Position numbers and translations under genes: made by a program. A DNA stretch of 64,000 nucleotides, from contig CAZHNM010000002.1 of assembly GCA_964533855.1 (NCBI GenBank), forward strand, positions 16,862-80,861, read 5' to 3'. The notes under the pieces are model-generated. The model was not told the origin of the DNA. It ran no database searches and saw only the letters and a list, made by a program, of their open reading frames with translations. Below, piece after piece: positions 18 to 58,266 of this stretch. Source of the stretch: an uncultured Brevinematales bacterium (GTDB lineage: Bacteria; Spirochaetota; Brevinematia; Brevinematales; JAOACQ01). Numbering within the stretch: the stretch's first letter is position 1; the number at the start of each line of letters is the position of its first letter.

Positions 18-1118
18 ATGAAGGTTATAAACGATTATTCCATATCCTGCCTCGACATGGAAGGGATTGAAAGCCTGAAATCAATTGACCCTTTTGATCT
101 TTCCAGGAAAATGGAAACTTATGAGAAAAATGCTGAAACATTTTTAAACGCTGTTATCAATAACCAGGTTGTCTATAGCTCCTTTGTCGAAGATATCGTC
201 ACCGATCTGCTAAGCGATATCGGCTACAAATTATCTGTCGGGCTGCTCGCGATGGTTTTTGAGGAGGACTGCGGCAAAAAGGATTATTTATCGAGTCATT
301 CCCTGCGAGTGGCTATTATAGCGCTCATTACGGCAATTGAAATGACTAAAATGGTGCATGGAAAAACAGAGGTATTGAAGGATACCGATCTCGATACTTT
401 TCTGAAGCTGAGCAAAAAATTCTTTTCTCTCGAGGATCTGATAAATATTGGAATATCGGCTTTTCTTCATGATATAGGCCTTAAAAAAAATATACCCGAT
501 ATGACTTCTGAATTTAAATTCAATATCTCCAACCAGGCTTTGAACGATCTCCATACCAGCGAAGGATTTCATTTATCCAAGCGTCTAAATGTGGATTTCG
601 AGGTTCAGAATGCCGTTTATCAGCATAACGAGCGTTTTGACGGTTCGGGCAACCCGAACGGCACGCTTCCGCGCCTGTTTTCGAAGTATTCGGCCGTTCT
701 GATGTTTGCCGAATACTTTATCGAATCAACTACAATGAATCCATTTGTTGAAAAACCTCAAACCCCGAGGGTTTTCCTTCTGAACCTTTTGAATAAAGAG
801 AGAAGCAAATTTGACGGGGATGTGATATATTCTTTTATCAGGGCCGCTTCGATGTACCCGGTAGGAAGCTGGGTTTTCCTAAAGGATGAAAAAATCGCGC
901 TTGTTTCAGAGGTTAATAAAGCTTCCCTTGAAAAACCGGTGGTTATGGTATTTCTCGATAATAAATTGGAAAGGATTGCGCCATATAAGCTGAATTTGAA
1001 TGAAGATTCCAACGCTATAATAAGCCCGGTAAATTTTTCATCGATAAGGAGCAGTTTCAATGATCCCGTAAAAGAAATATGGCCTTATTTATCTGAAAAT
1101 CACGGGGTAAATGGTTGA
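18..1118 (+). CDS. HD-GYP-like (HD superfamily) c-di-GMP phosphodiesterase or sensor domain protein
   Basis: 366-aa ORF. It has the HD motif FLHDIGL and QHNERFDGSGNPNG, a variant of the HD-GYP signature HHExxDGxGYP. The frame stays open back to base 3, so the true start may lie upstream of the window. Confidence 0.75.
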   Translation: MKVINDYSISCLDMEGIESLKSIDPFDLSRKMETYEKNAETFLNAVINNQVVYSSFVEDIVTDLLSDIGYKLSVGLLAMVFEEDCGKKDYLSSHSLRVAIIALITAIEMTKMVHGKTEVLKDTDLDTFLKLSKKFFSLEDLINIGISAFLHDIGLKKNIPDMTSEFKFNISNQALNDLHTSEGFHLSKRLNVDFEVQNAVYQHNERFDGSGNPNGTLPRLFSKYSAVLMFAEYFIESTTMNPFVEKPQTPRVFLLNLLNKERSKFDGDVIYSFIRAASMYPVGSWVFLKDEKIALVSEVNKASLEKPVVMVFLDNKLERIAPYKLNLNEDSNAIISPVNFSSIRSSFNDPVKEIWPYLSENHGVNG

Positions 1119-2505: not shown

Positions 2506-4266
2506 ATGATCCTCACATTAATAATCTGGGTATGGATAGCTGTAGTTTGTTATATTTACGGTTATATGTCGATAAGGCTTTTCAGTAAGATTTTCAACCT
2601 GGAAAACCGGGATGTGCATGCCCCTGTTGTAATAATACTCGGTCTCTGCCTGATTGGAACGGCAGTTTCATATTTTTCAATTTTTATCAAAACAGGGCTT
2701 GCCGTTAATATCATACTTGTCCTGCCGGCTGCGATATATTCGGCTTTAGACTTTAAAAATATAAAAATAAGTTTAAAAGCCTTTTTTAACGAATTAATGG
2801 ATAAAAACATATATTTCTCGTTTTTTTTTCTGGTATTGTTTTTTATAATTCTCTTCGAGACTTCGATTTACATTCCAAAATTTTATGACTCGGCATTGTA
2901 TCATGCCCAGAGTATTCACTGGATAGAGAAATATAAAGCTGTTCCGGGCCTGGGGAATTTCGAGAAAAATCTCTCATATAACAACAGCTGGTTCCTGCCG
3001 TCTGCGTTTTTCAGCTTATCCTTCCTTGGCTTCAGATCTTTTCATGTCCTCAACGGCATATTCTTTTTGACAGGCGCTTTTTATTTCCTTGGAGCTGTGG
3101 ACGATTTTTTCAGGAAAAAGAAAAGAATATTCAGCGGATTGATATGCATGTTTGTAATACCGGCGGCATTTTATCTATATGCAAATTTTTCATCTTCACC
3201 GGGGACAGATATGCCGACATCGATATTAATATGGACTATCTTCATATTGTATATAGATAAGTTAGAGCTTAAAGGAACCTATGACTTTGATATCGCCAGC
3301 GTAGTCATTGTTGCTTTAGCGTCCTATCTTATTACAGTTAAACTTTCGGGGATTCCCGTGTTCTTAATCGCAGCATATATTATATTCCGGGAATTTGCAT
3401 CGAGGAAAATCATGGCCCTGAAGCTTGTTTTATTAAGCTGTCTGATTTTCATACCATGGATTATCAGAAGCTTTATTATTTCAGGTTACGGTGTATACCC
3501 GGTTATTCAAACAGGAATTTTCAATTTCGACTGGAAAGTCCCTGAAAAGAATCTTCTTGCCGATATCCAGGGTATAAGGAATTGGGCGTTTCCTGCAGGA
3601 AACCGGCCGTTCTTAAATTACCTGTTTTTATGGCTCAAAGGTCTTAATATACAATATAAATTTGTGATCTGGCCCCTGTTTTCATTTGCGGCTTTATCTC
3701 TCTTATACTATTTAGCCGGATTATTTTTTGAATTCAGAAAAATACCCCTTTTCTTAAAAAAGTATAAAGATTACATGATCTGCTATTTGACAGTGTTTTG
3801 CGGAGCCGCTTTCCTGTTTTACAGCGCCCCGGATGTCCGCTTCGGCGCCGCTATTTTTACTCTGCAATGCCTCCTGATTTTCATTCCCGCATTGATGCCT
3901 CTTTTAAAAAGAAGTCAGCAACCTCTCATGATTTCTAAATATTATCTGACAGTACTGCCTGTGTTAATGATCATTTTCGAAATTTTTCTTTTCAACAGGT
4001 ATTTTTATTCCGGCAGGCAGATGCTTTTTGCCAGGGACAGCATATCCGATATTGCCGGACGTATTTTAATCCCCGCTGATTATGGAAAAAGCCCCGAAGG
4101 AGTTTCAGAATATACCGCCGGTGATAAATTTCATTATTATATCCCCAATAAATTTACATCCGCCTGCTGGTACGATCCGTTCCCCTGCACTTCTGAACTT
4201 TTCGGAATTCTCGAAACGAGGGGAGAAAGCGCCCAGGACGGATTCAGGATAAGGATCGAAAATTGA
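2506..4266 (+). CDS. large polytopic membrane protein (possible glycan polymerase or glycosyltransferase; function unknown)
   Basis: 586-aa ORF with an AGGAG Shine-Dalgarno 6 nt upstream of the ATG. More than 10 hydrophobic segments are followed by a soluble C-terminal tail of about 90 aa. Confidence 0.55.
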   Translation: MILTLIIWVWIAVVCYIYGYMSIRLFSKIFNLENRDVHAPVVIILGLCLIGTAVSYFSIFIKTGLAVNIILVLPAAIYSALDFKNIKISLKAFFNELMDKNIYFSFFFLVLFFIILFETSIYIPKFYDSALYHAQSIHWIEKYKAVPGLGNFEKNLSYNNSWFLPSAFFSLSFLGFRSFHVLNGIFFLTGAFYFLGAVDDFFRKKKRIFSGLICMFVIPAAFYLYANFSSSPGTDMPTSILIWTIFILYIDKLELKGTYDFDIASVVIVALASYLITVKLSGIPVFLIAAYIIFREFASRKIMALKLVLLSCLIFIPWIIRSFIISGYGVYPVIQTGIFNFDWKVPEKNLLADIQGIRNWAFPAGNRPFLNYLFLWLKGLNIQYKFVIWPLFSFAALSLLYYLAGLFFEFRKIPLFLKKYKDYMICYLTVFCGAAFLFYSAPDVRFGAAIFTLQCLLIFIPALMPLLKRSQQPLMISKYYLTVLPVLMIIFEIFLFNRYFYSGRQMLFARDSISDIAGRILIPADYGKSPEGVSEYTAGDKFHYYIPNKFTSACWYDPFPCTSELFGILETRGESAQDGFRIRIEN

Positions 4267-4297
4267 AAAAAAACGCCCTTCTTCATATAATCTTTTC

Positions 4298-5521
4298 ATG
4301 AATTTTAATAAGGTCGTAATAAGAAAGGGAAATGACAGCGCCGGATTGATGAAAGATCTTTTAAAGGAGTTTCCGGCAAACAGCCTGGGAATAGGGGGCC
4401 GGCGCGTCCTTATTAAGCCCAATGCAGGCAGAATGGCGGGACCGGGGCTCGGAATAAACACAAGCCCGGATGTGATCGGATCAATACTGGATTATTTTCT
4501 GGAAAGCGGAATAAAAAACATTGCCGTCGGAGAAAGCCCGATAGTGGGCGTGAAGGCTCTCGAATCGCTGGAAATGAGCGGAATAGCCCGGGAAGCAGGG
4601 ATCAGAGGGGTCGAACTTATCGATTTCGACGCTTCAGGGTATCAAACTATCGATATTCCTGAGGGCAGAGTAATAAAAAAATTAAGAGTCTGCAAAGAAG
4701 TCCTTAAAAACAATTTTATAGTTTCCGTTCCGGTAATGAAAACCCATATGCATACCCAGGTTTCCCTGGGCCTTAAAAATATGAAGGGCTGTCTGCATGG
4801 AAGGGAAAAGGTAAAGCTGCACCAGCTTCCTCCGTTTGGTCTGGTCGAGGAACCAGGCAAACCTCTCGATTATGCAATAGCGGACATGGCAGGGATCCTC
4901 ATGCCGGATTTCACGATTATAGACGGGACAATAGCCCAGGAAGGGATGGGGCCAAGCGGCGGAAGCGCCAAAAATGCGGGCCTGGTCATTGCTTCCTTGA
5001 ACTGCCTTGCGGCCGATACTGCCGCTGTCATGCTCATGGGCTTTAAACCGGAGGAGGTGTTCCACCTCCGTGAGGCATGGAAGATCCTCGGTTCCAAAGA
5101 CAGCAGGTATTTGCACAAAGGCATGATAGAAGCCGAGCCTGCAGATTTTATGAAATGGGTATCCCCTTTCGAAGCTCCACCGAAAAAAATATCGCTTGAA
5201 TATTCCAATGTAATAGTTGAAGATAAAGATTCATGCAGCGCATGCCTCTCGACTGTACTGATGTTTCTGAAGAGATATTACTCCGACTTTGCAGACTATC
5301 TTGGGCCCGGAAAGCCGCTGCGGATAGCCCTTGGGAAATCCACAGGCAAACAGCCCCCGGGGACTCTGCTAATAGGAAACTGTGCGATCAGGGCCGGGGA
5401 TAAAGAAGGCGGCGTTTTAATCAAGGGCTGTCCCCCCGTTTCTTCCCAGATCATCGAAGAAGTGGAAAAGCTATTTCCAGAGCTGAAGAAGAAGGGATTG
5501 AAGATTAACGGTTCTTTGTAG
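4298..5521 (+). CDS. DUF362 domain-containing protein
   Basis: 407-aa ORF. VLIKPNAG and MKTHMHTQVSLGLKNMKGC are motifs I associate with DUF362. The C-terminal part is Cys-rich (CSAC, GNCA, GCPP). Confidence 0.65.
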   Translation: MNFNKVVIRKGNDSAGLMKDLLKEFPANSLGIGGRRVLIKPNAGRMAGPGLGINTSPDVIGSILDYFLESGIKNIAVGESPIVGVKALESLEMSGIAREAGIRGVELIDFDASGYQTIDIPEGRVIKKLRVCKEVLKNNFIVSVPVMKTHMHTQVSLGLKNMKGCLHGREKVKLHQLPPFGLVEEPGKPLDYAIADMAGILMPDFTIIDGTIAQEGMGPSGGSAKNAGLVIASLNCLAADTAAVMLMGFKPEEVFHLREAWKILGSKDSRYLHKGMIEAEPADFMKWVSPFEAPPKKISLEYSNVIVEDKDSCSACLSTVLMFLKRYYSDFADYLGPGKPLRIALGKSTGKQPPGTLLIGNCAIRAGDKEGGVLIKGCPPVSSQIIEEVEKLFPELKKKGLKINGSL

Positions 5522-6225: not shown

Positions 6226-6813
6226 TTACCTGCTTATTAATCCCATAAAAAAGTCTAAAAGTTCATCCCTGTACCTTTCCAGGACAGGGCCTCCTCCGGA
6301 GAACATGTCCCTGTTTACAAGGTAGTAATGTATAAGGCCTATCCATGTATTGAAAACAAGGTGAATGGGGACTCTTTTCAGCCGGCCGGCGGCTATATCT
6401 CTTTGGACCGCTCCGTTCAGGTGGTAGGAGACGGCGGACTGGATCATTAAGAGCTCCTGCCTTGCTTGAGCGGGAAGAAGAGGACCTTCGGTCACGAGCC
6501 TTGTATAAAAAGATTCAAAAAGTGAAAGCCCGCTGATATGGGCCTCGAGTATTTCGCGGGTGTTTCCGGCCATGGCTTCCAGCTCATGAATACGTTCGGT
6601 GATTTTTCGGCCGAAATCCTTTACAGCTTCTACAAGGAGGATTTCCCTTGTTGGAAAATGCACAAAAATAGTTCCATGCGCCAGGCCGGCCGCCGAAGCT
6701 ATGTCCGATGTTTTAGCTTTAATAATTCCGTCTTTGACAAACTGGGCCTGGGCGGTCTTAATAATCCTGAGCCGTGTAGCGTCTTTACGGCCGCTTCTTG
6801 TTAATGCCGGCAT
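6226..6813 (-). CDS. TetR/AcrR family transcriptional regulator
   Basis: 195 aa with an N-terminal HTH (KTSDIASAAGLAHGTIFVHFPTRE). A GGAG RBS and an operator-like palindrome lie upstream. Confidence 0.85.
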   Translation of the reverse strand: MPALTRSGRKDATRLRIIKTAQAQFVKDGIIKAKTSDIASAAGLAHGTIFVHFPTREILLVEAVKDFGRKITERIHELEAMAGNTREILEAHISGLSLFESFYTRLVTEGPLLPAQARQELLMIQSAVSYHLNGAVQRDIAAGRLKRVPIHLVFNTWIGLIHYYLVNRDMFSGGGPVLERYRDELLDFFMGLISR

Positions 6814-21304: not shown

Positions 21305-22477
21305 TTAAGATATCAGCTTCGTGCCCTTCGACAGGGGCAGGAAAATTGTAAAATCAGACCCTTCTCCTTTTTTGCTTTCGACCTTGATATTCCCCCCATG
21401 CTCCTGGATGATCTTGTAGACTATGGTCAGGCCCAGACCGGTCCCGTAGTCCTTGGTGGAATAATATGGCTCGAAAATTTTTTTAATCTTCTCGCTTTCG
21501 ATGCCCACGCCGTTGTCGGTTATAGAAATCCCGACAGAGTCTATCGAATTGTCATAAAATGTCCTTATTGTAAGTAGCCTTTTTTTCGCTGTTTCTCCTG
21601 ATCCCGGGATCTGGGCTTTCATCGATTCAATGGCATTTTTCAGAAGGTTGATTATAGCCTGTTTCAGATAATCCCTGTCGATAAAAATTTTCGGCACATC
21701 CTCATATTCTTCGGACAGAGTGATTTCATTCTTCTCGATTTCCGGTTTGATCAGGAACAATATATCCTTGAGATACTGGTTGATATTTTCAAATGTCATC
21801 TTCAGGTCGCGTTTTCTGGCGGCAGTCAGGAAATCGTTAACAATAAGCCCCAGCCTTCTCTGTTCCTCGTCTATTATATTAACATACTGAACCACTTCAG
21901 GCGGAACTTCAATAATTTTTTTATTTATTCCCTTTTTAAGGATTTGAGTATGAAGATCGATGGCCGTAAGCGGGTTCTTGATCTCATGGGCGATCCCTGC
22001 CGCAAGGGTGTTGAGTGCGGAAACAGATTCGAGATTCTTGAGCTGAAATTCCATCTGCTTATTCTCTGTTATATCCTTGATCTTGATTATGAAAATACTT
22101 TCCGATACAGTTATCCTTTCCACAAAATAGTACCTTGTTTCCCTCGTACTGTCCGTAAATTCCTTTTTAAAATCCTCCATGCCGACAGCCTCAAGAATGA
22201 AAGCGAAAAGGCCCTGGTTGCCAACCTGTTTTTTTAAATCATTGGGGTTAGCCGGAAGTTTGATGACATTCGGGGTGACAAGAAGTCTCTTGGCTTTCTG
22301 GTTGATAAAGAATATCCTGTTTTCATTGATGATTATAAGCGCTTCGTCCGAATATTCCATCGCATCCCTGTAGATGCGTTTTTCGCTTTCAAGGCTTTCC
22401 ATGAGAGATTTTATCTTGGCATCGTCAAGCCTCGACAGGTTTTCAAGAATCTTGTCGAAAAACTTATTTTCACTCAT
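21305..22477 (-). CDS. PAS-containing sensor histidine kinase
   Basis: H-box AHEIKNPL, N-box LLKNAIES, DNGVGI and GTGLGL. The start is probably MSENKFF (22477). The ORF track extends to 22603. Confidence 0.85.
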   Translation of the reverse strand: MSENKFFDKILENLSRLDDAKIKSLMESLESEKRIYRDAMEYSDEALIIINENRIFFINQKAKRLLVTPNVIKLPANPNDLKKQVGNQGLFAFILEAVGMEDFKKEFTDSTRETRYYFVERITVSESIFIIKIKDITENKQMEFQLKNLESVSALNTLAAGIAHEIKNPLTAIDLHTQILKKGINKKIIEVPPEVVQYVNIIDEEQRRLGLIVNDFLTAARKRDLKMTFENINQYLKDILFLIKPEIEKNEITLSEEYEDVPKIFIDRDYLKQAIINLLKNAIESMKAQIPGSGETAKKRLLTIRTFYDNSIDSVGISITDNGVGIESEKIKKIFEPYYSTKDYGTGLGLTIVYKIIQEHGGNIKVESKKGEGSDFTIFLPLSKGTKLIS

Positions 22478-22644
22478 ACGGGAAAACCCCTGTTCATATT
22501 TAACATCAAATGACCGATTATTATAAGGGCGGTTCCAATAACCAGCAATGTTGCTAACTAGGTGTTTTGTAATTATAATTAAATCGCCCGAGGGTCGCAA
22601 CAATAATAATAAAAATAAATTTAAAAGTCAGGGGTTATTAAAGA

Positions 22645-41132: not shown

Positions 41133-41140
41133 ATACTACC

Positions 41141-41251
41141 GGGCACTTCTAATAACTGCCCCTCTGGGGCAGCAAGGTAGTGCCCATTGGGCGGAATTAT
41201 TAGATTTATTACTAAGTTTGTTTTCAAAAATCCAGTTTTTGGAACCGCCCT
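41141..41251 (+). repeat. copy 1 (compact, 111 nt) of a two-copy structured intergenic module
   Basis: Four segments are identical to copy 2: GGGCACTTCTAATAACTGCCCC, GGTAGTGC, CATTGGGCGGAATTATTAGAT and AGTTTTTGGAACCGCCCT. Internal complementarities are GGGCACT/AGTGCCC, CTGCCCC/GGGGCAG, TCTAATAA/TTATTAGA and GGGCGG/CCGCCC. Confidence 0.85.
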
Positions 41252-41328
41252 ACCGATAATCAGATATTAGTACTTGTGCTAAGCCTCTGTTCTATGATAA
41301 AATACTGTATTGAGAAGGGAGTTTCTTA

Positions 41329-51693: not shown

Positions 51694-54600
51694 TTATAGC
51701 TGCAGCTTCCTGATCTCATTCTCAAAAACAGAAGAGACATCCTGCCTGTGTTTGTCAATTGTGTTTTTTAGAAGGACAGGTGATTTTTCATCGATAATGC
51801 CGACAAAATAGCTCCTTTTAACGAGGTAGTCGTATTCGGCCGAATCCTGAGGATAGACGCTCAGATCTTTCGCGTTTCCCTTGACCATCCTGAGGATATT
51901 GATGAGATTCCTGAAAAATAGATAGCCGTTATTTAAAATTCCCCATGAATTTTCATCAATTACGCCGGTTTTGAAAAGGGCTTCTATGGAGTCGAGCGTG
52001 GATTCGCACCTGACGGCCGGGATATCTTTACCGCAGGCTATCTGGAGGGTCTGTACGAGGTATTCGATATCCACAAGGCATCCTTTCGAGTATTTAATAT
52101 TGGTCAGGCCCGGCTTTTTTATATACGAGCCGATCTGTTTTTCCCTGAGTTTATACAGCGCGTTGATATCGGGTTTTATACCGCTGTAGACAAAAAGGTC
52201 GCGACCTGAAATGATATCTTTTATCAGGCTTTCGGGCGCGTTACCCCCGCATATAGGGCGGAGCTTGACCATGGCCTGCTTTTCGAAATAATAAGCCTTG
52301 CCTTCACGGAAATATTCAAGAAAGACTGATTTCGAAACCGGAATTCGGGATGATTTGCCGTAAGGCCTGAGGTTTAAATCAATCTCGAAAATCCCCTCTC
52401 TTTTTGAACGAATGATCTTAAGAAGGTCCTGCATATATTTTTCGTAATAGGTAACCATGTCATTATTGCCGCGGGTACTTTCCTCCGGATCATCATCATA
52501 GATGAACATTATTTCTATATCCGAGGCGTAGCCGAGTTCCCTGCCCCCGAGTTTTCCGAGTCCGAAAACCGCCCAGGCCGGTACTTTTTTCATACCGCCT
52601 GTCTTCTGCATCTCTTTATCAATTTTCTTCATTGCAATATCTATGACCGATTCGGCAAGATCGGTCAGTTCCAGGGAGAATTCTGCCATACCGGTCATCT
52701 TCAGTATCTGCCTGATATCTATCCTGAACATTTCCCTGTCCTTCCAGTCATTCAGAAGGATGCTGAAATTTCCCTCCCGAACCTTCCCTGTTTGTCCGGA
52801 TAATTCACTTAAAAATAATTCGGTAAGCTGTTCCCTGGTGAAATGCTGCTTAAGGACAGGATCGCTCAACACCGGCAGCATATCAGTATACTGCAGCCTT
52901 ATCAGGTCCTCCCAGAAATAATCGCCGATCCCGAATACGGCCGCCAATTTTTCCTGGACATCCTTCTGCCCTAAAATCGGAAGCTCTTTTTTATCTCCGC
53001 TTTCCAGAACCCTCATGAGAAGTTCGTCAAAATACAGGAGCGCTTTATCGGGGTTGACGGCATTCTGGAGTAAAGTCGAATACTGCTTTATCAGGGCTGC
53101 GGCTATTTTAAGATTTTCAATTTCCCTTGTTTCCAGTATCTTTTTTCCGTCCCTTGTGAGAATAAACAGCCTGTCGAAGACCCTCTCACCGGAGGTATCT
53201 ATCTCGATTTTAAATATATAATAATTATAAAGGGCAAGAACGTTCGTAAATGTGTACAGGAAAGCGAAACTGTCCCCGGAACTTATGTTCAAAATCGTAT
53301 ACCGGCTGCTTGAAACATTGTCGACGCCTATTTCAACCGGAGCTATAGACGGAGTTTCGCCGGATTGAATCAATGAAATAAGACCGAGGATCTTGTTATT
53401 GAGGAATTCCTCGGCTTCCCTTGCCCTGTTGTTTTCAAGAAGACTCAGGATAAAGGACAGCTCTTTCCTGAAATTATCCCAGTCCGGTTCATGATGATTT
53501 TCAAACTCTTCGACGGTTAGAAAACATACAATCTTTCTCCTGTAGATCAGCCCCCCGGTTTCCGCGGGAGGGGAATATGGGTATATCCTCTTTTCCTGTC
53601 TCCTGTAAAATGCGCCGGAATCTCCGCCGTATGTGAATGATTCGCCGCTGATGATTTTCAGGTAATAGGCTGAAACCAGTCCTGCGATTTTCGAAAATTC
53701 ATAATAATAATCAAAAGCTACGATTGTAAGCTCCCACCTTCCGGGCCCTGTTTTTTCAGCTTTAATGAGGGCGGGGTTCCGGATATCGAGTTTTGAAATC
53801 ATCATTAAATGAGAATAGATATTATCTTCGCTGAAGGACAGGAAATACTCGCTGTCCATCCTCAGAAAATGATCCGAAAGGAGTTCCCTGTCGATATCGG
53901 GGTGACCGGCGAGAAGATTATCCTTCAATTCCAGGTAATGGATGGTTTCATCGAAAAGGTATGTGAATATTTCCCTGACTTCTTTCATGATATTTTGAAG
54001 CCTTGCCTTAAACTCCATGCTGTAATTATCTGTGCCGGAATCGAATCCGTCTATCCTCCAGGGGCGGAACAGCGTTTCGATATCCTTGTCATCAGCAGGC
54101 AGGGAATGTTCGGGAGTATTGTTTTTCAGCTGTATGATGTTTTCTATTTTACGCAAGGTTATATAGCTCGAATGCAGAATCGAGAATTCTCCGGGGGTTA
54201 TAATATGGAATGTACTGAGAAGCGAAAGAGCCGTGAGCGAATTGGGATTTTTAAATTCAGGATACCTTATTCCATGGATAAGCTGGAGAAACTGGATAAT
54301 AAATTCTATATCCCTTATTCCGCCAGGGGACTGCTTTATTTCGAATAAAAGGTTTCTGCTGCGAATATTGGTTTCGATAAGATCCTTGGTCCTTTTAATG
54401 TCGTATAAAATGGCATGCGGCTGGTGATGGCTGTATATAATATCGTCAAGCCGGGTGGAAAATTCATCGAAAAGAACTGCGCTTCCCCAGACAAGCCTTT
54501 TTTTTATCATTGCCTGGAGCTCCCATTTTCTTGCCCTGTCTCTGTAATAGTCAAGAGCATCGGCGGCTCTCATAAAGAGCGGACCGTTGCCGCCTTCCGG

Positions 54601-55182
54601 ACGCAGCCTCATATCCACCCTGTATAAAAAGCCTTCGCTTGTCGTGGAGCTTATAAAATCAAGAAGGCCTGTCAGTAATGCCCCTGTATAATCGTCGGAA
54701 TCCCCTACAAGAAAAACCAGGTCGATATCTGAACTGATATTAAGCTCGTTCCCGCCTAATTTCCCCATTCCGATAATAATAAGGTTTTCCACGAGGGATT
54801 TATAACGCAGCAGATCATTACCGCTTCCGGCTAAAAGGCTTTTGACCGAGTAATCTATGCAGAAATCAGCGAGCCTTGAAAGACTTTCGATGGTATCCTT
54901 GACGGTGTAAATTTTAAGAAAATCCTTGAGGGCGATAAGAGCAAGCTCCCTGTTTTTTATTTCCCTTGACCGGAGCTTGAGGCTTTCCGGCGCGGCATCC
55001 TCAGGCGGGAAAGGGTATTTCAAAGAATACGGATCCTCTATTACTCCTTCCAGGGTCCCATTGTTAAAACCCTCGATAATATTATACATTTCCAGTCTCA
55101 GCGCTTCATTCCTGGAAAGGAGCATTGATATGTAGGGACTGGAAAGCTCAAGGCTTCTTATGGATTCTTCAGGATTGATCAT
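51694..55182 (-). CDS. glnE: bifunctional glutamine synthetase adenylyltransferase/adenylyl-removing enzyme with a central ACT-ACT insertion
   Basis: 1162 aa with two GlnE nucleotidyltransferase cores (GMGKLGGNELNISSDIDLVF with MRLRPEGGNGPL, and GLGKLGGRELGYASDIEIMF with LNLRPYGKS). Residues ~435-700 between them contain two ACT-like beta-alpha-beta-beta-alpha-beta segments. Confidence 0.85.
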   Translation of the reverse strand: MINPEESIRSLELSSPYISMLLSRNEALRLEMYNIIEGFNNGTLEGVIEDPYSLKYPFPPEDAAPESLKLRSREIKNRELALIALKDFLKIYTVKDTIESLSRLADFCIDYSVKSLLAGSGNDLLRYKSLVENLIIIGMGKLGGNELNISSDIDLVFLVGDSDDYTGALLTGLLDFISSTTSEGFLYRVDMRLRPEGGNGPLFMRAADALDYYRDRARKWELQAMIKKRLVWGSAVLFDEFSTRLDDIIYSHHQPHAILYDIKRTKDLIETNIRSRNLLFEIKQSPGGIRDIEFIIQFLQLIHGIRYPEFKNPNSLTALSLLSTFHIITPGEFSILHSSYITLRKIENIIQLKNNTPEHSLPADDKDIETLFRPWRIDGFDSGTDNYSMEFKARLQNIMKEVREIFTYLFDETIHYLELKDNLLAGHPDIDRELLSDHFLRMDSEYFLSFSEDNIYSHLMMISKLDIRNPALIKAEKTGPGRWELTIVAFDYYYEFSKIAGLVSAYYLKIISGESFTYGGDSGAFYRRQEKRIYPYSPPAETGGLIYRRKIVCFLTVEEFENHHEPDWDNFRKELSFILSLLENNRAREAEEFLNNKILGLISLIQSGETPSIAPVEIGVDNVSSSRYTILNISSGDSFAFLYTFTNVLALYNYYIFKIEIDTSGERVFDRLFILTRDGKKILETREIENLKIAAALIKQYSTLLQNAVNPDKALLYFDELLMRVLESGDKKELPILGQKDVQEKLAAVFGIGDYFWEDLIRLQYTDMLPVLSDPVLKQHFTREQLTELFLSELSGQTGKVREGNFSILLNDWKDREMFRIDIRQILKMTGMAEFSLELTDLAESVIDIAMKKIDKEMQKTGGMKKVPAWAVFGLGKLGGRELGYASDIEIMFIYDDDPEESTRGNNDMVTYYEKYMQDLLKIIRSKREGIFEIDLNLRPYGKSSRIPVSKSVFLEYFREGKAYYFEKQAMVKLRPICGGNAPESLIKDIISGRDLFVYSGIKPDINALYKLREKQIGSYIKKPGLTNIKYSKGCLVDIEYLVQTLQIACGKDIPAVRCESTLDSIEALFKTGVIDENSWGILNNGYLFFRNLINILRMVKGNAKDLSVYPQDSAEYDYLVKRSYFVGIIDEKSPVLLKNTIDKHRQDVSSVFENEIRKLQL

Positions 55183-55323
55183 GAAATAGTATAGTCAGCC
55201 CCGTGAAAATTTTCAAACCTGGAAGGAGGAGTCGATATCAAATTCTTGAGTTTTTAATCCCGAATAAATATAATATTACCCTGTAATGGGCACTTCTAAT
55301 AACTGCCCCCCCCTTACGGGGAC

Positions 55324-55338
55324 CTTCGCTTCGCTTCG
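55324..55338 (+). repeat. (CTTCG)x3 pentanucleotide tandem repeat inside module copy 2
   Basis: CTTCGCTTCGCTTCG is read directly from the sequence. It is flanked by a direct repeat of GGGGACCT (55318-55325 and 55345-55352); the first copy overlaps the first two bases of the tandem repeat. Confidence 0.85.
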
Positions 55339-55365
55339 GCCTTTGGGGACCTGCTTGGTAGTGCT

Positions 55366-55434
55366 TGTCCTGGGGCCAGTTAGGCACCAGGGCCCACCTG
55401 TCCTGGGGACTGGCGCCAGGCCAGGCACCAGGGC
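55366..55434 (+). repeat. imperfect tandem duplication inside module copy 2
   Basis: Two units start with TGTCCTGGGG (55366, 55399) and end with AGGCACCAGGGC (55382-55393, 55423-55434). Each unit contains complementary CCTGG/CCAGG. Confidence 0.8.
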
Positions 55435-55524
55435 ATTGGGCGGAATTATTAGATCCATTAATATTGATTGTTTTTCAAGAACAAGTTTTTGGAACCGCCC
55501 TAAAAGTTATCGAGAGGTATAAAA

Positions 55525-56619
55525 ATGACTCGTAATTACGCTCTTACCAGCCCATACGGCGAAAAGGATATCTCGGGATGCGGCCTTATCGGATTTATTA
55601 ACAGGGACGGGATAAAATCAACAGGAACCGATGCTATAAAAGGCATTGAACATATGAAAGACAGGGGAAACGGCCTGGGCGGAGGTTTCGCCGTTTACGG
55701 CCTTTACGATACATACAAGGATTATTATGCTCTGCATGTGATGTATGACGATAACGCTTCGATGGAAGCCGGAAAGGATTATATAAAAAAATATTTCGAT
55801 ATCGTATATGAAGACCAGATCCCGACAAGGAAGAACAAAACGATCAGCAAACCCCCCATTTTTTACAGGTATTTCTGCCGTGTAACGGACGCCCAGCTTG
55901 GAAATGAAAAAGAGGACGATTACGTCGTTTCGCAAGTGCTGTTTATAAACAAGAATATCGACGGAGTTTTTGTAGTTTCGAGCGGCAAGAATATGGGAGC
56001 GTTCAAAGGAGTAGGCGAAGCTCATGAGATCGGAGATTTTTTCAGGCTTGACGAATACCGGGCCCATACATGGATCGCTCACAGCAGGTTTCCGACCAAC
56101 ACTCCAGGCTGGTGGGGAGGCGCTCACCCGTTCACTATTCTTAATTATTCCGTTGTCCACAACGGCGAAATTTCATCTTACGGAATTAACAGAAGATACC
56201 TTGAGAGTTTCGGTTACGAATGCACAATGAGGACCGATACCGAAGTCGTCGCTTATGCCGTCGATCTCCTGAAAAGGAAGCATAACCTTTCCTGGGATCA
56301 GATAGCCAAAGTTTTTGCGGCGCCGTTCTGGAAAGATATTGACGCAATGGATGAGAAATCGAAGGCTCTTTACAAGGAGATAAGGATTGTATACGGGAGC
56401 CTGCTTCTCAACGGGCCCTTTGCTTTCATAATCGGCTTCGACGGCGGGTTTATGGCACTCTCCGACAGGGTGAAGCTACGGCCCCTCGTAGCTGCCGAGA
56501 GCGGCAAAACCCTCTATGTATCGAGCGAGGAGGGGGCGATAAGGCGCATTAACGGCAAACTTGACCGGGTATGGCACCCTGAAGCCGGCGAGCCCGTTTT
56601 CGGCTACCTGGAGAATTGA
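55525..56619 (+). CDS. class-II (Ntn) glutamine amidotransferase, stand-alone glutamate synthase GltB domain-1-like protein
   Basis: 364 aa with a GAGAGG RBS. The candidate catalytic Cys lies in DISG-CGLIGFI, after an 18-residue leader. HSRFPTNT and VHNGEISSYG motifs are typical of GltB/PurF-type amidotransferases. Confidence 0.7.
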   Translation: MTRNYALTSPYGEKDISGCGLIGFINRDGIKSTGTDAIKGIEHMKDRGNGLGGGFAVYGLYDTYKDYYALHVMYDDNASMEAGKDYIKKYFDIVYEDQIPTRKNKTISKPPIFYRYFCRVTDAQLGNEKEDDYVVSQVLFINKNIDGVFVVSSGKNMGAFKGVGEAHEIGDFFRLDEYRAHTWIAHSRFPTNTPGWWGGAHPFTILNYSVVHNGEISSYGINRRYLESFGYECTMRTDTEVVAYAVDLLKRKHNLSWDQIAKVFAAPFWKDIDAMDEKSKALYKEIRIVYGSLLLNGPFAFIIGFDGGFMALSDRVKLRPLVAAESGKTLYVSSEEGAIRRINGKLDRVWHPEAGEPVFGYLEN

Positions 56620-56622
56620 CTC

Positions 56623-58266
56623 TTGAAGGGCCCTGGTTTTCTCTCTCTCTTTTTGTTTATAGCAACCCCTCTTTTTTCTACTGAGATTTTTACAAAAGGG
56701 ATCAATCTGACTGAATGGTTCCAGGAACCTGCGGTCAGATCAATACAGGCAAACAAATACACGAAAAAGGATTTTGAGGATATCAAAAGTCTCGGATGCG
56801 ATGTCATCCGCCTTCCGATCAACCTTCATGCAATGACAGGCGGAGCTCCCGATTATATAATAGATCCCATGTTATTTAAATTCCTCGACAGGGCTGTGGA
56901 TATATGCGAAGAGCTCAATATTTCGCTTATCCTTGACAATCATTCAGATTCCGATAAAATGACCGATCCTTCTGTCGGAGATATTTTATCAAAGATATGG
57001 ACACAGATAGCCGGCCATTATAAAAGCCGGGGCAGTTTACTCTATTACGAAATACTCAACGAGCCGCATGGGATCAGTCCGGCAGCCTGGGGCATGATCG
57101 AGAAAAATGTTATAAATAAAATAAGGCAGATCGATAAAAAACATACTATAATAGCAGGCGGAGCGGGCTGGAACGATATTGATTCGCTCTCGAAACTTCC
57201 CGATTTCGATGACGATAATATCATCTACACATTTCACTTCTACGACCCTATGCTTTTTACACACCAGGGAGCCGCATGGTTAAAACCGCCTCAGACATCC
57301 CTTAAAGGCATCCCTTATCCCTACGACAAAAAGAGGATGCCTCCCTGTCCTTCCGATTTGTTGAATACATGGGTGCAGAAAAAATTAAGCATGGAATATC
57401 CCTCTGAAGCCAATAACGGAGCGCTTGAAAAGACAATCCTTAAGGCAGTAGATTTCAGGGCTAAAACAGGCAAAATAGTTTATTGCGGTGAATTCGGCGT
57501 TTTAAATAAAAATGCGCAGGATGGAGACAGGTTTTACTGGTATGATTCTGTAAGAAAGATCCTAGAGAAGTATTCGATCCCCAGGACTTCCTGGGATTAC
57601 AGAAGCTCTTTCGGGTTATTCAAAAAGGATTCGGATGAAGTATTCGATTACGACCTGGATATTCCCATAGTCATGGCTCTCGGCCTTAACCCGCCCTCCT
57701 TTAACGAGCTCAAAATAAAACCTGAAACTAACGGTTTTTATATATTCGACAATTACCCGGCCCCGGGATTAGCAGTAGCATCCTATACTATCAACGGCTC
57801 TATCGGCCTGTATGACACAGAATCCCCTGAAAACGGTAAATATTCAATAGATATGGATAACCTTGACCGTTACGACCGGCTTAATTTTTCCTTCAAACCG
57901 GCGAAGGATCTATCGGAACTGCTTGAAAGAAAATGCAGCGTTGTGATAAAATTGAAATTGAAGCCGGGGTTTAAAAATGTTGATATCAGGTTTCTCTCCG
58001 TCAGGAAAGACGATCCCGTTTCAAGGCCCTGGAGAATCAGATACACACTTGATGATAAGACCCTTAAAAAAAGCGGAGACTGGCAGACTGTTTATGTCGG
58101 CCTCGATAAATTCACCGAACAGGGCGCATGGAAAGACAAATGGTATAATCCGGAGGGGCTTTTCGACTGGCGCAGCATAACAGGTTTCGAAGTTGTTTCT
58201 GAGAATGAAAAATGGCAGAACACGGGTCTTCTCATAGCACAGATCAGCCTTTCACTGATAGAATAG
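56623..58266 (+). CDS. secreted glycoside hydrolase family 5 (cellulase/mannanase-like) with a C-terminal beta-rich domain
   Basis: 547 aa with a TTG start 7 nt after GGAGAA and a signal-like N-terminus. The GH5 acid/base motif is YEILNEPHG and the nucleophile motif is YCGEFGV. Confidence 0.8.
   Translation: MKGPGFLSLFLFIATPLFSTEIFTKGINLTEWFQEPAVRSIQANKYTKKDFEDIKSLGCDVIRLPINLHAMTGGAPDYIIDPMLFKFLDRAVDICEELNISLILDNHSDSDKMTDPSVGDILSKIWTQIAGHYKSRGSLLYYEILNEPHGISPAAWGMIEKNVINKIRQIDKKHTIIAGGAGWNDIDSLSKLPDFDDDNIIYTFHFYDPMLFTHQGAAWLKPPQTSLKGIPYPYDKKRMPPCPSDLLNTWVQKKLSMEYPSEANNGALEKTILKAVDFRAKTGKIVYCGEFGVLNKNAQDGDRFYWYDSVRKILEKYSIPRTSWDYRSSFGLFKKDSDEVFDYDLDIPIVMALGLNPPSFNELKIKPETNGFYIFDNYPAPGLAVASYTINGSIGLYDTESPENGKYSIDMDNLDRYDRLNFSFKPAKDLSELLERKCSVVIKLKLKPGFKNVDIRFLSVRKDDPVSRPWRIRYTLDDKTLKKSGDWQTVYVGLDKFTEQGAWKDKWYNPEGLFDWRSITGFEVVSENEKWQNTGLLIAQISLSLIE

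Follow-up and report, generated by a model that had tools for sequence, protein, structure and literature searches.

The intergenic region between glnE and a gene for a class-II glutamine amidotransferase carries a module with a GC-rich, internally repetitive core, and the question raised by this locus is whether the module is a structured RNA serving nitrogen metabolism or a repeat of mobile DNA. An earlier note had proposed either a structured RNA or an expanded DNA repeat. Our results bear out a DNA repeat, and a mobile one, while the nitrogen-regulatory RNA does not hold up: we are highly confident that the module is a MITE from an IS5-family insertion sequence (IS). Two complete copies lie in the window, by which we mean the whole 64-kb stretch of DNA that was analysed, and their main features and neighbours are as follows.

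41141-41250, plus strand: MITE copy 1, basic form, 110 bp, with TACC at 41137-41140 and 41251-41254 and empty sites in loci L037 and L038.
51694-55182, minus strand: glnE (GlnE and GlnD_UR_UTase domains, from domain matches), the divergent neighbour of copy 2.
55246-55274, plus strand: sigma-70-like host promoter site (TTGAGT, 17-nt spacer, TATAAT), 13 bp upstream of copy 2 and kept in the relatives with an empty site.
55284-55287, no strand: left target-site duplication TAAT, one base off TAAA, from comparison of TAAT/element/TAAA in the window with the empty site ccctgTAAAagtt.
55288-55500, plus strand: MITE copy 2, expanded subfamily, GGGCAC...CCGCCC, 213 bp, from the empty orthologous site in L006 and L007 and the 19-copy family with target-site duplications.
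55288-55308, plus strand: 5' terminal inverted repeat GGGCACTTCTAATAACTGCCC, equal to the right end of the parent IS and matching the reverse complement of the other IS end, GGGCGGTTCCAAAAACTGCCC, at 17 of 21 bases.
55484-55500, plus strand: 3' terminal inverted repeat AGTTTTTGGAACCGCCC, equal to the left end of the parent IS and found unchanged as the final 17 nt of the 1280-bp IS in L011.
55501-55504, no strand: right target-site duplication TAAA, from the window and the empty site in L006 and L007.
55525-56619, plus strand: class-II glutamine amidotransferase gene (GltB1-like), with its start 24 nt downstream of copy 2.

The placement of the module between glnE on the minus strand and a GltB-domain gene on the plus strand was confirmed by the GlnE and class-II amidotransferase matches, and the sequence blocks previously described in its core are present: CCCC-TTAC-GGGG at 55310-55321, GGGGACCT at 55318-55325 and again at 55345-55352, (CTTCG)x3 at 55324-55338, and two TGTCCTGGGG...GGCACCAGGGC units at 55366-55393 and 55399-55434. 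As had been noted, copies 1 and 2 have their arms in common (GGGCACTTCTAATAACTGCCCC, GGTAGTGC, CATTGGGCGGAATTATTAGAT and AGTTTTTGGAACCGCCC), with the 22- to 23-nt core of copy 1 replaced in copy 2 by 124 nt (about 125 nt in the earlier description), and the core is indeed more GC rich (0.58-0.73 in 60-nt windows) than the AT-rich flanks (0.30-0.40). The span 55264-55524 given earlier does contain these features, but its limits are not those of the element, which runs from 55288 to 55500; the wider span takes in the host promoter and leader.

Empty sites and the dispersed family

Homologues of the downstream class-II amidotransferase were searched for, and the contigs of the matches were compared at the site of copy 2. 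The site is empty in L006 and L007, where the amidotransferase is 98% identical at the protein level and the gene order is that of the window (glnE, amidotransferase, GH5 cellulase, TetR, HlyD, ABC). The spacer of these relatives (...aatattaccctgTAAAagttatcgagaggtataaaaATG) reads aatattaccctgTAAAagttatcgagagg around the empty site, against ...accctgTAAT/GGGCAC...CCGCCC/TAAAagttatcgagagg in the window (slashes mark the ends of the element), and this comparison identifies the 213 bp at 55288-55500 as an insertion with a 4-bp duplication in which one base has changed. The imperfect duplication, TAAT on the left and TAAA on the right, counts against the MITE reading. Copy 2 is likewise absent from L001 and L004, with amidotransferases of 88% and 85% identity. 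For copy 1, L037 and L038, whose gene order is unchanged and whose Fe-ADH has 91% and 88% identity, have empty sites that read aaatacTACCgataatca, or in short form ...ataCTACCgata..., with a single TACC, compared to TACC/110 bp/TACC in the window. Both copies are strain-specific insertions, and their absence from close relatives indicates recent activity. A function tied to the locus is refuted, since the relatives lack the element at both loci with no change in gene order, an outcome that the earlier note had itself named as one that would tell against its finding.

The two copies in the window belong to a dispersed family. Within the window, the 22-nt 5' arm (GGGCACTTCTAATAACTGCCCC) has two exact matches against none expected by chance, and the internal arm GGGCGGAATTATTAGA likewise occurs exactly twice. 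Scanning of a 20-nt 5' arm against 185,579 species-representative genomes gave 16 matches, none of them outside two Spirochaetota MAGs (MFD03726 bin.1.3 and bin.1.133) that come from a single sample, and a metagenome scan with the internal arm gave seven matches, four of which are further copies from JGI Ga0181520. The other three (L026, L027 and L030) were chance matches in marine coding sequence and were discarded. In total, 19 complete copies were found in four assemblies, 17 of them besides the two in the window, with lengths of 76-235 bp. All copies are intergenic, often a few bases from the end of a gene, and they occur in both orientations beside unrelated neighbours. The 4-bp flanks are identical in 14 of the 19 complete copies and differ by one base in 4 more, the sequences being TTAA (seven times), TTTA (twice) and TAAA, ATTA, TCAA, ATAT, TATG and TACC (once each). 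Open reading frames of 60 and 78 aa over copy 2 are not preserved, as the indels between copies are not multiples of three. The element is therefore small and non-coding, with terminal inverted repeats, a fixed 4-bp target-site duplication, dispersed copies, presence/absence polymorphism and an autonomous partner, which are the features of a MITE.

Several members of the family have arrangements of their own. In L017, two copies are inverted with respect to each other, at 6295-6405 (minus strand) and 6601-6711 (plus strand), with 195 bp between them; the second copy (L017b) is divergent and has kept its inner hairpin through three compensatory base-pair changes, CCGCCTT/AAGGCGG. The copy at 1355-1430 in L015 is an internally deleted form of 76 bp, in which the left arm is joined to ...CTGAACCGCCC; it retains the TTAA duplication and sits exactly between two convergent open reading frames. 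At 49-74 (minus strand) in L014, cut by the end of the locus, the same terminal repeat is followed by a different hairpin, TACCGG-ACAAG-CCGGTA, and this variant may represent another subfamily or a related IS.

The parent insertion sequence

Three of the arm matches run on into a 1280-bp element (L011 5365-6644; also in L004, L020 and L022) that has the same two ends and a TTAA duplication, and this is the parent IS of the MITE. Read against the plus orientation of the module, it codes for a 350-aa protein with matches to Pfam DDE_Tnp_1 (E = 1.5e-23) and DUF772 (E = 1.3e-20) and to the NCBIfam model NF033581, IS5 family transposase (248.3 bits against a cut-off of 140 bits), and homologues of the protein carry the source name IS5 family transposase. 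The ends of the IS, GGGCACTTCTAATAACTGCCC and GGGCGGTTCCAAAAACTGCCC, form an imperfect inverted repeat (17 of 21 bases). The MITE retains two pieces of this element: its first ~66 nt come from the right end of the IS, downstream of where the transposase gene stops, and its last 17 nt from the left end. The parent IS was found in a related MAG and is not in the 64-kb window, where no transposase gene was found, a point that counts against the MITE reading.

From this anatomy it is likely that the MITE arose by internal deletion of the 1280-bp IS5-family IS in a Spirochaetota lineage and that it is mobilised in trans by the IS transposase. The DDE transposase would recognise the imperfect terminal inverted repeats of ~21 bp (GGGCACTTCTAATAACTGCCC and GGGCGGTTCCAAAAACTGCCC) and insert the element at AT-rich 4-bp targets, mostly TTAA, and the 4 bp of the target would be duplicated in the process. 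The parent resembles the IS5 group: its 1280 bp carry a single DDE transposase, its imperfect terminal repeats begin with GG, and 4 bp are duplicated where it inserts into TTAA-like targets. It differs from its nearest relatives, with transposases that are 90% and 73% identical, at the right end: these have the same left end but different right ends, without the 45-nt nested stem-loop GGGCAC...GTGCCC that is present here. The IS and its MITE family constitute a previously undescribed pair in an uncultured Spirochaetota lineage.

In organisation, the nearest described analogues are the BOX repeats of pneumococcus, taken up below, and the MITE BrickBuilt of Porphyromonas gingivalis, which has IS5-like terminal repeats, an internal 23-nt minisatellite and irregular target-site duplications (PMC4596501). 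BrickBuilt and the present MITE are small, non-coding and intergenic, and both combine a variable repetitive middle with IS5-family-like terminal repeats that are also found on a full-length IS. They are unrelated in sequence, however, and the middle of the present element consists of GC hairpin modules at three hot spots rather than a uniform tandem array, with target-site duplications that are regular, 4 bp long and AT rich.

Two further arrangements were observed around the full-length IS. In L022 (~720-760, minus strand), it abuts the end of another family member (...CAGGGCCCTAAGGGAACTGCCC TTAA GGGCAC...) with one TTAA in common, indicating a tandem or nested insertion. In L004 (7190-7350, and the same region of L011), agttcggctgattgaTTTCGCTTCGcgaattcaaggcctc is repeated three times at spacings of 84 and 42 nt, between the amidotransferase orthologue and the IS in MAG bin.1.133.

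Copy 2 in the presumed leader of the amidotransferase gene

Copy 2 lies between the promoter-like site at 55246-55274 and the ribosome-binding site of the amidotransferase gene, in what is presumably the 5' untranslated region. The insertion would have occurred a few bases downstream of the presumed transcription start, and with the promoter-like site upstream of it and the start codon 24 nt downstream, copy 2 is probably co-transcribed, forming a long structured leader that would measure about 240 nt. The gene that follows the GltB1-like amidotransferase encodes a GH5 cellulase (56623-58266) and not the other glutamate synthase domains, so that the amidotransferase is a stand-alone gene in the window, and likewise in L006 and L007.

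It is conceivable that copy 2 has been co-opted by its host, so that the GC-rich leader modulates the stability, translation or transcription of the amidotransferase mRNA, and besides the position of the element this would agree with the fact that no terminator-like site is predicted on the plus strand within copy 2 and with the view that co-transcribed structured repeats affect expression in pneumococci (PMC3049150). We nevertheless regard co-option as unlikely. The insertion is strain specific, and the complementarity of the element to the Shine-Dalgarno region, a pairing that was suggested by the minimum free energy (MFE) fold and then rejected, is no better than chance (-14.0 kcal/mol against a shuffle mean of -13.5, with 175 of 500 shuffles as good). 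Under the MITE reading, any regulatory effect of copy 2 would be a by-product. Its location between a promoter and a ribosome-binding site offers a natural experiment on how a 213-nt structured leader affects gene expression. In the transposase sense, the CTGCCCC/GGGGCAG hairpin (P2) is a GC stem followed by UUAUUAG and has the look of a terminator. A reading of the arms as a sigma-54 promoter or a regulator-binding site was also considered and was rejected, as the GG-to-GC spacing does not fit.

The GC-rich core and the structured-RNA reading

In an alignment of 18 copies, the basic form of 110-111 bp (copy 1 of the window, L008, L016, L017a, L018 and L025) agrees with the IS end, and many other copies have GC-rich hairpin sequence added at three hot spots. 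The first is the tip of the CTGCCCC-TTT-GGGGCAG hairpin, which adjoins the terminal repeat on its inner side; the second follows immediately on GGTAGTGC, where the outer GGGCAC/GTGCCC stem has its 3' edge; and the third, in L009, L024 and L028, is between TTTTTGG and (G)AACCGCCC, within the other terminal repeat, where related CCCTNAGG...AGGG hairpins are found. The extra sequence of copy 2 occupies the first two, and its core is laid out as follows.

55310-55356, plus strand: hot spot 1, where GC-rich hairpin sequence has been added to the P2 tip, from the alignment and folds.
55324-55338, plus strand: (CTTCG)x3 microsatellite-like tract, private to copy 2; L024, L028 and L029 have GGGGACTAAAGCC there.
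55357-55364, plus strand: conserved GGTAGTGC, the 3' strand of the outer stem P1, from the alignment and folds.
55365-55434, plus strand: hot spot 2, a 70-nt double hairpin unit consisting of two TGTCCTGGGG...GGCACCAGGGC units.
55435-55454, plus strand: conserved internal segment ATTGGGCGGAATTATTAGAT, complementary to TCTAATAA in the 5' repeat, from the alignment and the pair count.

The modules are combined variously among copies. Versions of hot spot 1 related to that of copy 2 are found in L010, L023, L024, L028 and L029, and at hot spot 2 a 39-nt single unit, ACCTGTCCTGGGGACTGGCACCAGTCCAGGCACCAGGGC, is present in L010, L019 and L023. Units of the form CCCC-TTAC-GGGG-A(C/T)AA(G/A) occur one to two times, and L012 and L013 have a shorter unit. 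The 70-nt double unit of copy 2 is identical in L024 and differs by two bases in L029, both other loci from JGI Ga0181520. The identity of 70 nt at another locus in an independent assembly indicates that the double unit is a subfamily trait copied by transposition and is the product of neither local expansion nor misassembly. The tandem duplication described earlier is thus real as far as its two units are concerned, but it is inherited and did not expand within copy 2, whose only private feature is the (CTTCG)3 tract where relatives have CTAAAG.

Change appears to have gone by accretion and not by shortening of a longer ancestor; the basic form is that of the IS and of the most numerous copies. 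GC-rich modules would have been gained a short way inward of the right-end repeat, both in the P2 tip and immediately 3' of the GGGCAC/GTGCCC stem, and transposition would then have carried them from locus to locus. To judge from the sequences, replication errors at palindromes most likely created the modules and reshaped them, an origin that we consider probable, if by no means certain. Slippage between short direct repeats of G or C runs could account for the duplication of units, for the (CTTCG)3 tract and for L028, where a single hybrid unit is explained by a deletion between the CTGG repeats of two units. Fold-back template switching could account for inverted copies of adjacent sequence such as L015, in which AAGGGC-TGTA-GCCCTT contains an inverted copy of the neighbouring GCCCTT, the pattern that would be expected of this process.

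Alternatively, the GC-rich modules could be small nested mobile elements with a preference for MITE hairpins, comparable to the GTAG-tagged palindromes of the REP/RAYT system or to mitochondrial GC clusters. Similar CCCC-TTAC-GGGG units do occur at hot spot 1 (L010 and L012) and, directly after GTAG, at hot spot 2 (L013), the third hot spot in the left-end repeat has its related hairpins, the inserts are flanked by short C runs or GC, and GTAG-tagged palindromes are a known mobile class (PMC3733652). However, no GC modules were found outside MITE copies in the about 246 kb searched, the 64-kb window has no other family of GC-rich hairpins (its seven distinct perfect GC-rich hairpins, among them P2 of MITE copy 1, are unrelated), the sequence examined showed no RAYT gene, and the unit fusion in L028 and the inverted adjacent copy in L015 fit local replication errors better. 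We find nested elements rather improbable for these reasons, and have equally low confidence in the broader proposal that tiny nested palindromic elements or directed palindrome extension repeatedly colonised three sites of the MITE, including one terminal repeat, with mobility kept. Were it true, the modules would be to bacteria what the mobile GC clusters are to yeast mitochondria.

What is mildly unusual is that GC-rich hairpins have repeatedly accreted at fixed sites of an AT-rich element; one of these sites is within a terminal repeat, and the copies with an insert there have nevertheless reached several loci. The Correia elements of Neisseria and the ERIC elements of enterobacteria are MITE-like palindromic repeats of comparable size classes, which in their case arise by internal deletions and insertions at fixed sites; they are often transcribed into mRNA leaders or trailers. 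The target duplicated by Correia elements is TA, and no tie between them and an IS5 transposase is known. Neither family is known to show accretion of GC-rich hairpins in an AT-rich element. The hairpin variants described here, added, duplicated, fused and deleted at fixed sites, could serve as material on palindrome-driven mutagenesis. The BOX elements of Streptococcus pneumoniae have the modular structure boxA-boxB(n)-boxC, are often co-transcribed with neighbouring genes and are regarded as parasitic rather than functional (PMC3049150). Like the present MITE, they have conserved end modules and internal modules that vary in number, and much secondary structure is predicted for them, but they belong to another phylum, have no homology to it and have no known parent IS, while the parent is known here. 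REP and REPIN elements, which RAYT transposases mobilise (PMC3733652, PMC3116915), also involve short GC-rich palindromes, and GTAG is found next to hot spot 2 here. The present element differs in having terminal inverted repeats and 4-bp duplications, which REPs do not have, and in being without stand-alone high-copy palindromes in the sequence examined.

We place very little credence in a cis-regulatory role of the module as a structured RNA, whether riboswitch or leader, that controls nitrogen-metabolism genes and has the GC core as a stem of variable length. In its favour, the module is upstream of the amidotransferase gene and adjoins glnE, and the basic form folds well (z = -3.69 for a 201-nt region), its left part having an outer 7-bp stem P1 around the 7-bp GC hairpin P2. 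The earlier note had placed the extra sequence at a hairpin loop and a junction, and the predicted folds of L010, L019, L028 and L029 agree: P1 and P2 are kept, insert 1 is in the tip of P2, and insert 2 forms separate hairpins 3' of P1. The MFE fold of copy 2 in the window is itself rearranged. Helix 2, a potential 8-bp pseudoknot between TCTAATAA and TTATTAGA, has a standard pair in 95.6% of cells and is almost invariant. When the pairs of P1, P2, P3 and the pseudoknot were tested for covariation, they were so nearly invariant that they give no signal of covariation; 92.0% of cells in the alignment were paired, compared to 91.6% in shuffles, and the only three double changes are all in P2 of the divergent L017b (CCGCCTT/AAGGCGG for CTGCCCC/GGGGCAG). 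This structural evidence is too little for a selected RNA. The compensatory pairs of L017b hint at some constraint on the inner hairpin that a purely parasitic reading does not explain, and the pair data are compatible with a mild hairpin constraint and equally with palindrome-templated correction.

The other results speak against a regulatory RNA. The element is absent from the orthologous loci of close relatives with unchanged gene order, its other copies flank unrelated genes in either orientation, and it is flanked by target-site duplications and has the same ends as a transposase-bearing IS. A search of the whole window against Rfam gave no match at the gathering score, and at E values up to 10 the locus gave only sub-threshold matches to miRNA, snoRNA, sRNA and CRISPR-repeat families (E of 0.12-8.2), which is the level of chance. 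The link to nitrogen metabolism, drawn earlier from the neighbouring genes, finds no support on the same grounds. What appeared to be a two-copy RNA motif of a nitrogen island is a transposable element, and with this a false lead is removed; annotation as a MITE is called for, and the element is best masked when regulatory RNA is searched for. Finally, although assemblers typically err in places such as this, where an AT-rich spacer contains a GC-rich segment with internal repeats, it is extremely improbable that the core is an assembly artefact, with an identical 70-nt core in L024 and the same architecture in L024 and L029 on independent contigs from a different project (JGI Ga0181520), and with related cores in MAGs of long contigs.

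Two other repeats were observed in the window. One is a degenerate partial copy of the MITE, recognised by direct reading of the sequence (the nhmmer match is weak, E = 0.2).

22527-22589, minus strand: degenerate partial copy, 3' half of the element, 63 nt, GGGCGA...TTGGAACCGCCC.

It has the ends GGGCGATTTAATTATAATT...TTATTGGAACCGCCC, is without a target-site duplication and overlaps the 5' end of a long open reading frame with a TTG start (21305-22603), the start of which is probably over-extended. The other is a 49-nt direct repeat of 80% identity (1115-1163 and 4263-4311) that begins with TTGAAAAAAA and contains TATAAT, and it looks like a common promoter region of two genes 3.1 kb apart.
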